This document shows, one piece after another, positions 925 to 63,524 of a stretch of 63,695 bases of DNA (position 1 is the first letter of the stretch; every line of letters starts with the position of its first letter). A program made the position numbers and the translations under genes. The notes beneath the pieces were generated by a model that saw only the letters and a list, made by a program, of their open reading frames with translations, was not told the origin of the DNA and ran no database searches. This DNA is from Patescibacteria group bacterium (GTDB lineage Bacteria; Patescibacteriota; Minisyncoccia; 2-02-FULL-40-12; GWA2-44-9): positions 2,893-66,587 of the forward strand of contig JBBTTB010000004.1 of the NCBI GenBank assembly GCA_038064455.1, read 5' to 3'.

Positions 925-952
925 TTGACTTTTCTAGCCTTTTTGCTATCAT
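925..952 (+). promoter_or_regulatory. Putative sigma70 promoter P2 (extended -10) upstream of the S-layer gene
   Basis: TTGACT-16 nt-TATCAT, with TG one base before the -10. Confidence 0.7.
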
Positions 953-956
953 TTAA

Positions 957-1463
957 GGCGGTAAGTCTGCCCGAAGCATAGGGAAGCGCACCCGTGGAAC
1001 GCGCAACCTCACGCAATGGGAACTATCTACACATAGCAGGGAAAAACGAGCAACCATAGCCCATGGTTGCGTTTTGCCGTCTGAACCCTCTCCCCTTACA
1101 GTGCCACCCCGGTGACACGTAGCGGGAGGGAGTGCAGAAAGATCGTTGACAACCACGAACGAAAGCAATGGCTAAAGAGATGATTGAGACGAACGGTGCA
1201 TTCCCCATTTTCCATTGCAATGGTTAGCTCGCATTCATAAAAGGTCTTGGCGTCGAAGATTCACTCGAGCCACGTATTCGGTCGAAAGAACGAGTACAAC
1301 GCACCTAGTGGGGATTTATTCCCGTTAGTGTATGAGCAGAATCCATCAAGGCCTCGCCCTCCATAGGGCATCGTTAGTGTTCGTATTACTACCACTGCTC
1401 CCGTATATACTCCACCGTTATGGCGGCGTATGACGTGAAGTGTGGTTCTGAAAGGTTTAAGCC
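957..1463 (+). ncRNA. Candidate long structured 5' leader or cis-regulatory RNA (family not recognised)
   Basis: No credible + strand ORF lies between promoter P2 and ATG 1464. Hairpins seen at 957-971, 1050-1070, 1088-1130, 1274-1297 (GAAA loop), 1305-1328, 1356-1369 and 1402-1435. Confidence 0.5.
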
Positions 1464-4400
1464 ATGTTAACTTCAAAAAACCTTGTGACACTCAAACGAG
1501 TTGTCGCAGGACTCACAACCGTAGCGACAGCATTGTCGTTCACGGGCATGGCGCTGGTTCTTTCCTCTGGTGTAGCGCTCGCAGCCGCAAGGCCTGCAGA
1601 CTACGGTCTTAGGGAAGGAAACACCATCAGCGCTGCTGGATCCTCGGATCCTGATGTGTACATTGTGAATGATCTCGGGTACAAGCGTTTGTTCTTGAAC
1701 CCAGCAATCTTCAACATGTATGGTCACCTTGGCGGTTTCGCCAACGTGAAGACAGTTACACCAGCAACTCGCGATGCATTCGGCACTTCTGGCCTCTTCC
1801 GCAACTGTGAAACAGGCGATCAGAAGGTGTATGGTCTCGATGTGACTGGTGAAGACACCGCGATTCTCCGTTGGGTAAACACCACCGGCGCACAGGCAGT
1901 CGCAGATGACTCGAACTTCTTTGCGAAGGTCTTCTGTATCAACACGAACGAATTCAACTCTTACAACAAGGGTTCTGATTTCACTTCCGTGTTGCAGGTT
2001 CCTGTGTACGTTCGTGGTGGCGTAGCAAGCCCTTCATCCACTCCAGTCTCTGGATCGGTGAACTTCAGCTTAGCTTCGAACAACCCAGCATCAGCAACTC
2101 TCACCACGAATGCACAGGGTGTTGAGTTCCTCCGCTTTAAGGTTATGGGCACAGGCACATTGAGCGAAGTAACGTTCAAGCGCTTGGGCGCAGGTTCGAC
2201 GAATGATTTCGACAACCTGTACGTGTACGATGGTGCACGTCGCTTGACCTCAGGCAAGTCGCTCTCATCTTCCACGGGTGAAGTGACGTTTGCGAACCTT
2301 AACCTCTCGGTAAGCGGTACCAAAGAACTCTCGTTGGTTGGTGATCTTTCAGCAACGGCTGGAAACGTCAACTACTTTGAGTTGAAGGGTGCAATGCTTG
2401 CAAGTGGTTCTGTCGGTGGTTTGCCAGTCACGGGCAACACAATGTCTGTCTCTGGTGCAACCAGCGGTGGTATCACGATGAACAAGGTTGGTTCTATCCC
2501 GAACCCGACGGTTGGTCAGAAGGGCGCACAGATCTCGGAATTCAAGCTTACGGCAAACACCGAAGCAGCTTCCGTGAAGCGCATCACGGTGTTCCAGGGT
2601 GGCACAGTCAAGCCATCGGACATCACGAACATCAAGCTCAAGGCAGGCACGAACGAATGGGCTGGCTCGATGACGAGCGACAGCTATCTCGTGTTTGATC
2701 TTGGTTCTGGTTTCTCGATCGTGAAGGGTGGCGAGCAAGTCTTCAAGGTCTATGCAGATCTTGGCGGCAAGAAGGATGAGGATATAAACCTCTACTTCGA
2801 AAACTCGACCGATATCCTTGCAATCGGCGATCAGTACGGCTTCGGTATGGCCGCAACGATCACTGATATGGACACCGCAGCAGAATCGTTTGACGTAACC
2901 CTTCAGGGTGGCGTTCTCACGATCTCTTCGGGCACACTTGGCTCGGCAAACATTGGTACGGACACATCCGACACCACATTGCTTGAGTACTCAGTGGTTG
3001 CAGCAAGCAACATCGAAGTTCGCAAGACGGAGTTCACGCTCTGTCATGATCCTGCCGGTAATGGTTCTTACGCAAACGCGGCAGACGCCACCAACGGTTG
3101 GGCAGACCTCGATGACTTCAAAGTCACGAACAAGGACACCGGTGTCACCATCATGGGTCCTCAAGATGGTTCTGCCTTCACCACGTCCGATGCCGGCACG
3201 TGTGAAGATGCGGCAACAGGTGCACAGAAGTCCTTTACTGACACCTATGACCTCGTTGCAGGTAAGACCTACAACTTCAAGGTTACCGCAGATATCAAGA
3301 CGGCAAACAGCCGTTCTGGTACGGCGCTCGCAGCTGCTGATGCAATCCAAGTATTCTTGGATAACTTCACAGATGATACTCCTGACATCACTGTCATGAA
3401 GTATGCTGGCACCAACACCGCAGTAGCAGATGCAGACATTGTTCCGCAATCTGATATGGCGGGCCCAGCGTTGACGATCCAGGCCTCTTCCCTCTCATTG
3501 GGTTTGAGCTCTTCAGTCAACGATCAGTCGTTTGTTCGCGGAACCAAGAATGTTGATGCCGTTGGTATCACATTCAAGGCGGCGCAGGCATCGGATCTTA
3601 AGGTCACTGATATTACCCTTACGGGATACATTAGTGATTTGGGCTCGACCTTCTCCGTAGGTTCTGACACTGAAATCACCGTCGCAGACCGCGTCTCGGC
3701 AGTGAAGATCTATGAAGCGGAATCAGGCACACTATTGTCTGGTGCTCCGTCTTCGAACCAGCTCTCCAACACCACTGGTACCGTTACGTTCAACAACTTG
3801 AACTGGAACATTCCAGCGGGCGCAACCAAGACCCTTTTGGTTCGCGTAGACTTGGGCAGTAACCCAACCAGCGCTTCTGGTAGCGACTACTTCGCGTTCG
3901 ATATCAACGCAACATCTGACGTCACCGCATTGGACAGCTCGTCCCGTACGGTCAACGCAGGTACTGCAGATCCGAACGGTGCGACGACTCCGTCAACGGT
4001 AGTAACCGTCATGAACTCTGGTTCATTGGCAGTTGCGCTCAACACGGCTGACTCACCACAGAAGCACTCCGTCTACTGGGGCCAGACAGGTGATGTGGCA
4101 GGCGTATGGCGCTTCACAGCGACCAACGAAGCCCAGTACCTCGAAAAGGTCCAGTTTGGTGAAGATGATATTGGTGGCACACAAGAGACCGACTTCGCAA
4201 CGAACTCGAAGTTGGTACACATCCAGTATAAGAACAAGGCTGGCACCATGCTTACTAAGTCTGGTACGGTCAGTTCTGCTGGTACGGTATCCTTTGGCTT
4301 CTCTGGCGAAGATCGCCCGTACGTACCAAAGGACAGCTCCCTTGACATGAAAGTGATGGTGGATTACAAGACCAAGGCTGAAGGTGCAACCTCCGGCAAG

Positions 4401-5105
4401 GTCTGGGATCTCGCCTTCATTGGTGACTCGGGTACTGGCACCGATACGTTTAAGGCAGTCGGTGAAGGTTCTGGCGTTGTCCTTCAGGGCGACAGCACAG
4501 GTATCGCGGACAGCGACTTGGCAGATGCCAGTCGCAACACGCGTATCTACCGCGTGTTCCCAGAATTCGCACTTGTTGCTCCAACGGCAACGAAGCTCTC
4601 AACGGTTGATCCAGTCTTGACCTTTACCATCACGGCAAAAGGTCTCTCGGATTCCCGCTTGTTCTTCGATAACACCGCGGTTGCATCGGGTTCGATTAAA
4701 TTCGACACCGTTGCATCAGGTGTTGGTCTCACTGCAGATCCGGCATTCACCGTTCGCGATGAAGTCGGAACGATTGTTGACTCAAGTACGATCACGAATG
4801 CTACAAACCCATCCGTGGGCGCGAGCTTGACGATCGACTTCACGAGCTTGGATATTGAAGTAACGGGCGGAACCTCGAAGACCCTCAAGGTCTACTTGGA
4901 CTCCATCACGGACTTCAACACGCCGACCAACACCAGTTCTGGCGTTGCATCGGACTACTTCCAAATCGTATTGCGTGACAACGAGAATAGCTTAATTCAG
5001 TGGGTTGATAACTCAACGAACGCATCTTCGGATGCTGACGTTGCGTCAACGCAAGGCTTCTTGCGCAACCTGCCGATGAGTGGCTATCAGTTCACCGCGC
5101 AGTAA
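1464..5105 (+). CDS. Large secreted S-layer-like/major surface protein, 1213 aa
   Basis: It has an N-terminal signal peptide (ends ...GVALA) and Ser/Thr/Gly/Ala-rich repeated beta-rich modules. Codon bias is strong and high-expression type (TTC, AAC, ATC, GGT), and the gene has its own promoters and terminator. Confidence 0.8.
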   Translation: MLTSKNLVTLKRVVAGLTTVATALSFTGMALVLSSGVALAAARPADYGLREGNTISAAGSSDPDVYIVNDLGYKRLFLNPAIFNMYGHLGGFANVKTVTPATRDAFGTSGLFRNCETGDQKVYGLDVTGEDTAILRWVNTTGAQAVADDSNFFAKVFCINTNEFNSYNKGSDFTSVLQVPVYVRGGVASPSSTPVSGSVNFSLASNNPASATLTTNAQGVEFLRFKVMGTGTLSEVTFKRLGAGSTNDFDNLYVYDGARRLTSGKSLSSSTGEVTFANLNLSVSGTKELSLVGDLSATAGNVNYFELKGAMLASGSVGGLPVTGNTMSVSGATSGGITMNKVGSIPNPTVGQKGAQISEFKLTANTEAASVKRITVFQGGTVKPSDITNIKLKAGTNEWAGSMTSDSYLVFDLGSGFSIVKGGEQVFKVYADLGGKKDEDINLYFENSTDILAIGDQYGFGMAATITDMDTAAESFDVTLQGGVLTISSGTLGSANIGTDTSDTTLLEYSVVAASNIEVRKTEFTLCHDPAGNGSYANAADATNGWADLDDFKVTNKDTGVTIMGPQDGSAFTTSDAGTCEDAATGAQKSFTDTYDLVAGKTYNFKVTADIKTANSRSGTALAAADAIQVFLDNFTDDTPDITVMKYAGTNTAVADADIVPQSDMAGPALTIQASSLSLGLSSSVNDQSFVRGTKNVDAVGITFKAAQASDLKVTDITLTGYISDLGSTFSVGSDTEITVADRVSAVKIYEAESGTLLSGAPSSNQLSNTTGTVTFNNLNWNIPAGATKTLLVRVDLGSNPTSASGSDYFAFDINATSDVTALDSSSRTVNAGTADPNGATTPSTVVTVMNSGSLAVALNTADSPQKHSVYWGQTGDVAGVWRFTATNEAQYLEKVQFGEDDIGGTQETDFATNSKLVHIQYKNKAGTMLTKSGTVSSAGTVSFGFSGEDRPYVPKDSSLDMKVMVDYKTKAEGATSGKVWDLAFIGDSGTGTDTFKAVGEGSGVVLQGDSTGIADSDLADASRNTRIYRVFPEFALVAPTATKLSTVDPVLTFTITAKGLSDSRLFFDNTAVASGSIKFDTVASGVGLTADPAFTVRDEVGTIVDSSTITNATNPSVGASLTIDFTSLDIEVTGGTSKTLKVYLDSITDFNTPTNTSSGVASDYFQIVLRDNENSLIQWVDNSTNASSDADVASTQGFLRNLPMSGYQFTAQ

Positions 5106-15012: not shown

Positions 15013-15059
15013 GAGGGCGTTGTTTTACGTTGCTATGCGCGCTATGATAGTACCAATCT

Positions 15060-16181
15060 GTGACCCATTCAGCAAGCAATATTCTCATCTTTTCTCCCGC
15101 GTTCCGACCCCTTATTGGTGGGTCGGAACTGGCACTTGAGGCGCTTATGCGACACATGCCGGGGCGCTCTTTTGTAGTGCTGACGCCGCGTTACTCCACC
15201 GCCTTTCCCGCAAGGGAGTCGCATGAAAACGTGCGCATCCGTCGTATCGGTTTTGGTGTTCCGTGGCTCGATAAATATCTCTTCCTTGTCTTTGGGGCCA
15301 CCATTGGTCTCCGCGAGGCTCGTCATGCCGCCGTGCTTCATGCATACCAAGCATCGTATGCTGCACTTGCTGCATTAGTAGTGCGATTTTTTTCGAGGGT
15401 TCCCCTCATTGTAACGCTTCAAGAGGGTGCTCATTTTCAAAAGCAATCTTTGTTAGTTCGCGCTGGGCGCTGGCTTGCGGTGCGATATGCGGATAGGGTG
15501 ACAGCGATTAGCTCTCCCTTAGAGATATATGCACGTCACGTACGGCGTGGCGTCGGGGTAACGCTCGTACCGAATGGCGTTGATCCGGCGCACACATGCA
15601 CTTCTGAAGAGCGCTCTCGTTTGCGTACTGCGTGGGGCATTCGTGCCGATGAGGTGTGCATCTACTCTGCAAGTAGGCTCGTTTCAAAGAATGGCATTGA
15701 TGCGCTTGTTCGTGCCTGTGCCGCGCTCTCATTTCCGTGGCGTCTTGTGGTTGCGGGCGCTGGAGAGCGGGCGCGCATGTTACAGCAATTAGCTGTGGAG
15801 CTTGGGGTGAGTGATCGTGTCGTGTGGCGGGGATCAGTTTCTCATGGCGAAGTATTAAAAGAGCTTGGCGCCATAGATGTGTATGCGCGTCCTTCGCGAT
15901 CGGAGGGGCAGGGCATCGCATTTCTTGAAGCAATGGCCGCGGGTGTTCCTGTTGTCGCGTCGCGTCGCGGAGGTTTGCGCGATTTTATGCGCGATGGCGA
16001 GACGGGCTTTGTATGCGATCCTGATGACATTCCTTCCATAGTGGATGCGCTGACGCGTGCATCGCGACCTGGCGCCGAACGAGATACTGTGGTTACTACT
16101 GCGGGGGATATGATCTCTCGGGAGTACTTGTGGAGCCTTATTGCCCCTCGCATGGCCGCAGTGTACGATACACTGGCATGA
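15060..16181 (+). CDS. Glycosyltransferase family 4
   Basis: IGGSE; SRLVSKNG; SRSEGQGIAFLEAMAAG. Confidence 0.9.
   Translation: MTHSASNILIFSPAFRPLIGGSELALEALMRHMPGRSFVVLTPRYSTAFPARESHENVRIRRIGFGVPWLDKYLFLVFGATIGLREARHAAVLHAYQASYAALAALVVRFFSRVPLIVTLQEGAHFQKQSLLVRAGRWLAVRYADRVTAISSPLEIYARHVRRGVGVTLVPNGVDPAHTCTSEERSRLRTAWGIRADEVCIYSASRLVSKNGIDALVRACAALSFPWRLVVAGAGERARMLQQLAVELGVSDRVVWRGSVSHGEVLKELGAIDVYARPSRSEGQGIAFLEAMAAGVPVVASRRGGLRDFMRDGETGFVCDPDDIPSIVDALTRASRPGAERDTVVTTAGDMISREYLWSLIAPRMAAVYDTLA
16141..16169 (+). promoter_or_regulatory. Putative internal promoter for the GT2 gene
   Basis: TTGCCC-17-TACGAT, 8 nt before ATG 16178. Confidence 0.4.
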
Positions 16182-51030: not shown

Positions 51031-51058
51031 TTGCCCGTGTCCGCGGGTGTGCTACCAT
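51031..51058 (+). promoter_or_regulatory. Putative promoter for leaderless hpf
   Basis: TTGCCC-16-TACCAT with extended TG, 6 nt before ATG 51065. Confidence 0.55.
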
Positions 51059-54215: not shown

Positions 54216-54302
54216 TCCTCTCTTGCCTCCTAATACCACGGTGATATCATAAGGCAACATCACTGTAAAGGATCTCCAGATTTTGATCTCTTGTGGGCAT
54301 GC

Positions 54303-63448: not shown

Positions 63449-63524
63449 GCCCCTATAGCTCAGCTGGTAGAGCAGCTCCCTTTTAAGGAGACGGTCCCAG
63501 GTTCGAGTCCTGGTGGGGGCACCA
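63449..63524 (+). tRNA. trnK: tRNA-Lys (UUU)
   Basis: Acceptor GCCCCTA/TGGGGGC, D arm GCTC/GAGC, anticodon loop CTTTTAA, T arm CCAGG-TTCGAGT-CCTGG, encoded CCA; 76 nt. Confidence 0.97.

Follow-up and report, generated by a model that had tools for sequence, protein, structure and literature searches.

A long 5' leader, probably processed, ahead of a putative S-layer gene in a groundwater Patescibacteria genome

The interval 957-1463 of the DNA analysed here is probably the long 5' leader of a very highly expressed mRNA for a putative S-layer protein, and we infer that this leader is processed and that it acts to stabilise and regulate the mRNA. The DNA originates from a groundwater Patescibacteria genome (Paceibacteria / "Yanofskybacteria"-like), and the runs that hold its sequence are groundwater metagenomes. 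All positions refer to the window, by which we mean the whole stretch of 63,695 nucleotides. The modules common to the leaders of this gene family occur in one order on the + strand, namely a promoter, a GCAACC/GGUUGC hairpin with a U-run, the ACGUUGACAAUC block, a GGUCGA domain and the ATG.

When the 63.7-kb window was scanned for long ORFs (stop-to-stop, at least 110 codons), the stretch 953-1460 (508 nt) was the sole one of at least 150 nt that lay outside them. When the two closest relatives are compared, indels of 1-2 nt disrupt the short ORFs of the leader on both strands. These results bear out the preliminary description, which had found no credible ORF in the interval. Among the candidates that we rejected as coding sequence, the ORF at 1169-1228 loses its stop in the related locus L078, a TTG-started ORF at block B (described below) has TTA in L080 and L083, and the minus-strand ORFs of the leader are frameshifted by indels. 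The upstream neighbour of the leader is a gene for a lamin-tail-domain (LTD) protein (2-823). Within it, positions 1-260 hold degenerate 12/24-nt tandem repeats (CGTGTCACCAAC and related), which encode a repetitive N-terminal segment and align poorly with L001 and L078.

Downstream of the leader is the gene for a 1213-aa secreted protein (1464-5105, + strand), preceded by a Shine-Dalgarno-like GAAAGG (1450-1455). Both this element and the ATG (1464-1466) were read directly from the + strand sequence and are invariant in three relatives. The protein has an N-terminal signal-like segment and belongs to an uncharacterised family that is conserved across Paceibacteria with an identity of ~50% or more. 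Pfam and PDB searches with the 1213-aa protein gave no match and no recognisable S-layer domain, and its relatives showed sporadic Ig/Fn3-like matches only. We presume that it is the major protein of the cell surface or S-layer. Predictions of S-layer proteins in Patescibacteria have been published (bioRxiv 10.1101/2024.05.28.596244). Within the gene, the first 1000 nt are 85-97% identical to L078, and at 3500-4500 the identity goes down to 55-77% with many indels. RNA contigs also 'skip' blocks of 65-415 nt in the central part of the gene. Judged by this alignment, the central 3500-4500 is a hypervariable and putatively exposed region, as expected of a surface or phage-receptor protein. At loci L068-L077 and L097-L127 the match is restricted to residues ~20-200 of the protein (50-75% identity). 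As many loci match these residues only, the conserved N-terminal domain also occurs in proteins of other kinds and may serve them all as an anchoring module.

The promoter that had been noted ahead of the leader was found again at 925-952 (+ strand). It is an extended -10 promoter of the sigma-70 type, made up of TTGACT, a 16-nt spacer that includes TG, and TATCAT (TGCTATCAT). With 10 of 12 consensus matches and the TG present, it was the single promoter-like site found by the leader-region scan, and from its position and conservation transcription is predicted to start at ~958-960. When the pattern TTG[ACT][ACT]-N13-16-TGnTAnn[AT]T was searched in 65 orthologous loci, with the rest of the same loci as control, a promoter was present in 43 of the 65, versus 0.03 expected per 750 nt. 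The distance from promoter to ATG in these 43 loci, the window's promoter included, is 288-631 nt (median 440), and most species have a single consensus promoter in the whole gap. The ORF-free gap ahead of the orthologue is mostly 460-1280 nt in ~50 species-representative genomes and, according to gene calls, 545-755 nt in closer relatives. A long leader with its promoter far upstream is, by this comparison of sequences, a family trait of the orthologous loci.

Tandem extended -10 consensus promoters, ~30-160 nt apart, were observed in L080 (1903-1932 and 2022-2050), L081 and L087, and the second promoter of L080 is directly followed by the long hairpin located ahead of block B. Two promoter sites each were also seen in L010, L021, L024, L029, L050, L064 and L084. 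In the window itself there are only three other matches to the relaxed pattern, at 51031-51058 (+), 54223-54250 (+) and 15048-15075 (-), and all three are poorer than 925-952 (TTGCC or TTGCT versus TTGAC).

When the window's leader was compared with 77 GTDB loci using blastn, it aligned to L001 (93%) and L078 (92%) only. Because these matches are at the level of the same species, homology to other clades was found via motifs. Against L078 the leader is 88-97% identical (150-nt windows), versus 79-83% for the LTD gene and 72-83% for the downstream dehydrogenase-like gene, and the indels that separate the window's leader from the two close relatives are few and located in loops. The leader is conserved more strongly than its neighbouring genes, which points to selection on the leader. 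The variation within it is concentrated, among three relatives, at 1263-1383; the segment 957-1134 is ~96-97% identical in the window's clade, too uniform for covariation to show.

The interval had previously been called densely structured. The minimum free energy of 957-1463 is -161.7 kcal/mol (z = -1.54), with 7 of 100 shuffles folding as well, and the minus strand of the leader gives z = -1.99. Single-sequence folding energy was thus discarded as evidence of structure, and dense structure is not claimable from one sequence with such values. The support for structure comes from the comparison with relatives, in which helices covary, and in that form the idea of a structured leader stands. 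The consensus fold of three relatives contains six of the eight stems that had been listed, i.e. 1050-1070, 1088-1130 (in 1081-1137), 1274-1297, 1305-1328, 1356-1369 and 1402-1435 (in 1392-1445). The two others fail: U968G disrupts the stem at 957-971 in each of the two relatives, 958-965 being paired with 1073-1080 in the consensus fold, and a long-range GAGCAG/CTGCTC stem is absent from the fold. What had been taken for a GAAA tetraloop is actually part of a conserved loop motif (GGUCGAAA).

The Rfam 15 models (4227 in total), applied to the whole window at the gathering score, matched nothing in the leader interval. A tRNA gene at 63449-63521 (67.8 bits) was the sole match in the window. 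At E<=10, positions 800-1600 gave a single chance match to a snoRNA (12.7 bits). Fifteen related loci had 0 matches at the gathering score, and the leaders of L014 and L080 had chance matches only at E<=10. The preliminary description had recognised no known RNA in the interval, and the database agrees with it beyond chance matches. The leader represents an RNA family missing from the catalogue, and its putative function is of a known kind.

The GGUCGA domain (1242-1354, + strand) is a three-way arrangement of the helices P1, P1b, P2 and P3 with compensatory and G-U-mediated changes. P1 (1242-1250/1346-1354) is the closing helix and is followed by the junction GUCGAA (1252-1257), and both P1 and P1b (1258-1267/1333-1343) change through G-U intermediates. 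The P2 hairpin (1273-1298, with the stem 1273-1280/1291-1298) carries GGUCGA (1280-1285) in its loop, and its changes among three relatives are A-U to G-C as well as a C-G / U-A pair. The P3 hairpin (1305-1328, with the stem 1305-1314/1319-1328) exists in three versions, AGUGG/CCGUU, CAUGG/CCAUG and AGCGG/CCGCU, all of which pair, and a fourth version (CUUGCAGGA/UCCUGUGAG) was found in a DNA run. Four double-change pairs were observed among only three close relatives, all of them within 1242-1354 (P1b, P2 and P3). Since G-U pairs are A-C mismatches on the other strand, the constraint acts on the + strand RNA.

GGTCGA was by far the most enriched hexamer, being present in 33 of 37 non-redundant leaders versus 2.9 expected (z ~21). 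Per kb, it occurs 2.78 times on the + strand, versus 0.12 times on the - strand and 0.07 times elsewhere. In the RNA the motif is located in a hairpin loop, and the stem below it differs from species to species. When 18 GGUCGA hairpins were aligned by a covariance model, 81.9% of the cells in this model-fitted alignment were paired, versus 61.0 +/- 2.5% after shuffling (0/500) and 30-47% in slid controls. Double changes were seen in all 10 stem pairs of the same model-fitted alignment. The hairpin covariance model R2, which has an 8-nt loop, finds extra species and not the window's version with its 12-nt loop. Many leaders have a second copy of the motif at the closing-helix junction (GAGUCUUAAAUU-GGUCGA ... 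GACUCUAGUUUAAGAC), and the P1 / P2(GGUCGA) / P3 arrangement recurs with different helix sequences in L080, L082 and clade 2. At the level of aligned sequences, the GGUCGA-capped hairpin and the helices of 1242-1354 covary. The regions upstream of the orthologues, in which the preliminary description had proposed to look for covariation, yielded several covarying helices in an interval conserved above the neighbouring genes.

Upstream of the domain lies block B (1143-1154, + strand; UCGUUGACAACC), i.e. the ACGUUGACAAUC block, with the family consensus ACGUUGAMAAUC and a purine-rich run before it. Allowing up to two mismatches, we found it at 21 loci that represent many clades, where the distance to the downstream ATG is 180-357 nt, and in the consensus fold it falls within a small hairpin (1143-1147/1158-1162). 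Two roles considered for block B were rejected. As the -35 box of an internal promoter it has no consistent -10 box, and the block is itself transcribed; a pairing between loop and block (GUCGA with UUGAC, 5 bp on paper) has no supporting covariation, as clades with UUGAAA keep GGUCGA. The consensus fold pairs alignment columns 32-41 with 329-337, which amounts to a predicted long-range pairing of 1164-1173 (+ strand) with the start-codon region at 1460-1468, all positions of which are invariant. The fold also contains the + strand hairpins P4 (1356-1369), P5 (1375-1391) and P6 (1392-1445). Their stems are invariant or change from C-G to U-G only, their loops vary, and in P6 two C-to-U changes give G-U pairs.

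A different role for 1242-1354 would be that of a sensor that mainly switches translation or decay rather than stabilising the mRNA passively. It would be the aptamer of a riboswitch or else the operator at which an RNA-binding protein acts, and this protein might be the surface protein. The three-way junction and the covarying helices, with near-invariant nucleotides only in the junction GUCGAA and the loop GGUCGA, resemble the pattern of ligand- or protein-binding RNAs, and the predicted pairing of 1164-1173 with the start codon could be the expression platform. However, ~6 conserved nucleotides per site are few for a small-molecule aptamer, the domain ends ~110 nt before the ATG with three hairpins between, and no alternative-structure switch, candidate ligand or candidate protein was identified. 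We therefore regard a sensor as unlikely, although it deserves to be taken seriously.

Transcripts were found in 14 metatranscriptome runs from at least eight studies, which hold a relative ~91% identical to the window (L078-like) and not the window's strain. These data are assembled contigs and not reads, with approximate ends in which primary and processed 5' ends are indistinguishable. The 5'-most RNA contigs start at 1135, 1137, 1141, 1153, 1154, 1158, 1161, 1200, 1236, 1246, 1254, ~1283, ~1311 and ~1316. A cluster of starts at 1135-1161 (+ strand) is the candidate 5' end of a long mature mRNA, and the start at 1154 abuts an Illumina adapter. A second cluster at 1236-1254 (1236, 1246 and 1254; + strand) falls in the A-rich segment before P1 and is a candidate second processing site or weak internal start. 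The end at 1246 could stem from a weak promoter-like sequence inside the leader (TTGCAA-15-CATAAA, 1215-1241). Contigs that run from the leader into the gene were found at 1153-2913 (X21) and 1154-2156 (X23), together with one at 1141-1452 (X31). In one run a single contig of 3819 nt at 325x spans 1246-5049, and none of the four runs examined showed the upstream or the downstream genes. From ~1135 onwards, the leader belongs to a monocistronic and very abundant mRNA. Its steady-state 5' UTR is about 325 nt long, and about 220 nt in one run, a shorter form of the mRNA starting at about 1246, at the foot of P1.

No RNA contig was found for 957-1134 in the 14 metatranscriptome runs. DNA contigs of comparable depth (3-8x) span 861-1433, 905-1510 and 1031-1306, and because they cross ~1135 the break at this point is not an assembly artefact. 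Since the RNA contigs start at or after 1135 whereas the DNA contigs extend across this point, 957-1134 has probably been removed or is subject to attenuation. Thus, of the ~500-nt leader first proposed, 1135-1463 is contiguous with the coding sequence in RNA and 957-1134 is uncovered. One further run, X14, is labelled 'METAGENOMIC RNA-Seq' and may be DNA or RNA; it holds contigs of depth 2 (994-1142 and 1118-1266) that cross 1135 and that would, if RNA, be the only trace of a read-through precursor.

The main rival to a single processed leader is that the interval holds two units. The promoter at 925-952 would then drive a short RNA (~958 to ~1076 or ~1137), either as a small RNA or, for other clades, as the transcript of a very small peptide gene that ends at the GGUUGC hairpin and U-run, and the mRNA would start separately at ~1135 and/or ~1246. 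This would fit the lack of any RNA contig joining 957-1134 to the mRNA, and RNA-seq libraries often lose short RNAs. It would also fit the GUUUUG after 1050-1070, the proper U-run and Shine-Dalgarno mini-ORF of other clades, and the second consensus promoter just before the long hairpin in L080, L081 and L087. However, nothing promoter-like lies upstream of 1135 (1100-1134 is G+C-rich and variable), most species have a single consensus promoter per gap, and the 5' module is always syntenic with the 1213-aa gene. The short RNA has no clear terminator and was never seen in the 14 runs, an absence that is weak evidence as the libraries may under-sample short RNAs. We consider the two units improbable. 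The preliminary description had left the choice between a cis-regulatory RNA and a co-transcribed non-coding RNA; a cis-acting structured leader agrees with the data, and a free-standing non-coding RNA is unsupported.

The segment missing from the RNA contigs begins with the attenuator-like 5' module (957-1080, + strand), closed by the 958-965/1073-1080 helix of the consensus fold. It contains two copies of GCAACC (1003-1008 and 1050-1055). The latter belongs to the 1050-1070 hairpin (GCAACCAU-AGCCC-AUGGUUGC), which is followed by GUUUUG (1071-1076), and the copy at 1003-1008 may pair alternatively. A + strand terminator scan gave nothing at the 1050-1070 hairpin, where the U tract is GUUUUG only and that of relatives is UUUGUUGUUUUU. 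Other clades have a homologue of the window's module, GCAACC...UAGCCA...GGUUGC-UUUGUUGUUUUU, and in them it overlaps with a mini-ORF of 10-13 codons. Next comes a long imperfect hairpin (1081-1137, with the arms 1081-1108/1111-1137; + strand), with indels and substitutions at its apex only. The 3' base of this hairpin coincides with the upstream limit of RNA coverage, and analogous long hairpins stand ahead of the same conserved block in L080 and L082.

In clade 1 (ten species), the promoter is followed by GCAACC(C)UGUUUA and then by AGGAAAAAU-AUG and an ORF of 12-13 codons. This ORF holds the second GCAACC and has its stop in UAGCCA, after which UUUUGGUUGC-UUUGUUGUUUUU is found. The frame from ATG to stop is intact in 10/10 loci despite indels, one locus having a +1 and a compensating -1. 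Clade 2 has a different ORF of 10-11 codons that ends at UAG-CCA...UGGCUGC-UUUGUGUUU. The mini-ORFs (10-13 codons) lie ~45-125 nt past the -10 box, have a Shine-Dalgarno sequence and stop in or at a hairpin with a U-run. They were observed in L016 (547-612), L031 (2443-2508), L044, L021, L025, L046, L041, L020, L056 and L036, and further in L002, L005, L007, L008, L018 and L027. When a covariance model of the clade-1 mini-ORF/hairpin block (R1) was applied elsewhere, it gave weak matches only, though at the expected position. The mini-ORF and hairpin of the relatives look like a leader-peptide attenuator, of which the window's clade appears to have lost the ORF.

A conserved short ORF with a ribosome-binding site, as present in clades 1 and 2, was not found in the window's leader. 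Leader-peptide attenuation in the window itself would have to use a GTG-initiated ORF of 21 codons (994-1059), with the ribosome controlling the 1050-1070 hairpin. In its favour, its TAG falls within the hairpin loop, which is also where the stop codons of clades 1 and 2 are found, its GTG is preceded at a distance of 7 nt by an AGGGAAG run, and the clade-1 frame survives in all ten loci. Nevertheless, GTG994-TAG1059 was rejected as coding sequence. It is not conserved in L078, where the loss of a single nucleotide abolishes the TAG and lengthens the frame, three of its four substitutions among three relatives are non-synonymous, and the window has ACG where clade 1 has ATG. We consider this form of attenuation highly unlikely.

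An ordinary spacer or a DNA-level regulatory region with stems arising by chance would suit the unremarkable folding z-score and the failure of two of the earlier stems, but it is hardly credible for an interval that is conserved above the neighbouring coding sequence, has covarying helices and strand-specific GGUCGA enrichment, and is transcribed with the gene.

Under the preferred reading, a long processed leader that stabilises and regulates the mRNA, transcription would start at ~958-960 from the 925-952 promoter and the first ~175 nt would act as an attenuator-like entry module. This module would be without an ORF in the window's clade and, in other clades, would be read by a leader ORF of 10-13 codons with its stop codon in the hairpin. 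Either termination or an endonuclease cutting at ~1135-1141, where the long hairpin has its 3' foot, would account for the loss of the first ~175 nt, and a second cut may occur at ~1240-1246, in the A-rich segment that leads up to P1. The 5' end of the surviving mRNA would consist of the small hairpin or, directly, of the folded GGUCGA domain, which would protect it from 5'-end-dependent decay, and two GUCGA sites would be offered to a putative binding partner that tunes expression.

We tentatively entertain, as a possibility still short of probable, a more far-reaching proposal in which the main surface protein of Paceibacteria is under a lineage-specific riboregulator of several modules, i.e. 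a conserved promoter, an attenuator based on a leader peptide or a hairpin, a processing site and a new three-way-junction domain whose two invariant GUCGA sites bind a dedicated protein or ligand. Such a riboregulator, if real, would establish a new class among cis-regulatory RNAs and be among the first described for the large uncultured CPR radiation. The CPR/Patescibacteria represent a large share of bacterial diversity, are mostly uncultured and have very compact genomes, and to our knowledge almost nothing is known of their gene regulation. That a long leader is kept across dozens of species before a surface-protein gene whose mRNA outnumbers those of the neighbouring genes by far in metatranscriptomes suggests that it matters to these bacteria how their surface coat is controlled. 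As concrete RNA elements to test, the leader offers the GGUCGA domain, the ACGUUGACAAUC block and the module of mini-ORF and hairpin. In addition, the promoter and leader are a possible marker of highly expressed genes and could provide parts for genetic tools in cultivable relatives.

Among known systems, the leader resembles the orphan motifs of the Rfam class 'Cis-reg; leader' in having covarying helices, few invariant loop and junction nucleotides and a position always upstream of one gene family, and none of the 4227 models in Rfam 15 recognises it. Long stabilising mRNA 5' UTRs and tandem promoters are recognised for Lactobacillus S-layer genes (PMC3666127). The present locus is like slpA of Lactobacillus acidophilus and L. 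crispatus in that an abundant surface-protein gene has a strong promoter, with tandem promoters in some relatives, and a long folded leader contiguous with the coding sequence in a monocistronic abundant mRNA. There is no sequence or structural homology to the slpA 5' UTR, and stabilisation is suggested here by analogy. The present leader has 3-5 times the length of that UTR (a median of 440 nt counted from the promoter; ~220-325 nt mature). It also differs in having several conserved modules in a class-level lineage and in being apparently trimmed at its 5' end.

The related clades share with the trp/pyrBI attenuators a short Shine-Dalgarno ORF near the 5' end of the leader that overlaps the 5' arm of a hairpin with a U-run behind it, and in these clades two GCAACC copies compete for one GGUUGC. 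In contrast to the trp/pyrBI attenuators, the peptides are without a regulatory codon run and the hairpin loop contains the stop codon; the ORF is gone from the window's clade, and termination is putative. The leaders of E. coli ompA and B. subtilis aprE are mRNA stabilisers that consist of a single short 5'-terminal stem-loop. The present leader is similar to them in that the mature 5' end would lie a few nucleotides from a stable helix (1143-1162 in the long form; P1 at 1242 in the short form), and it differs in that this place is taken by a three-way domain of 113 nt in which loop and junction motifs are conserved.
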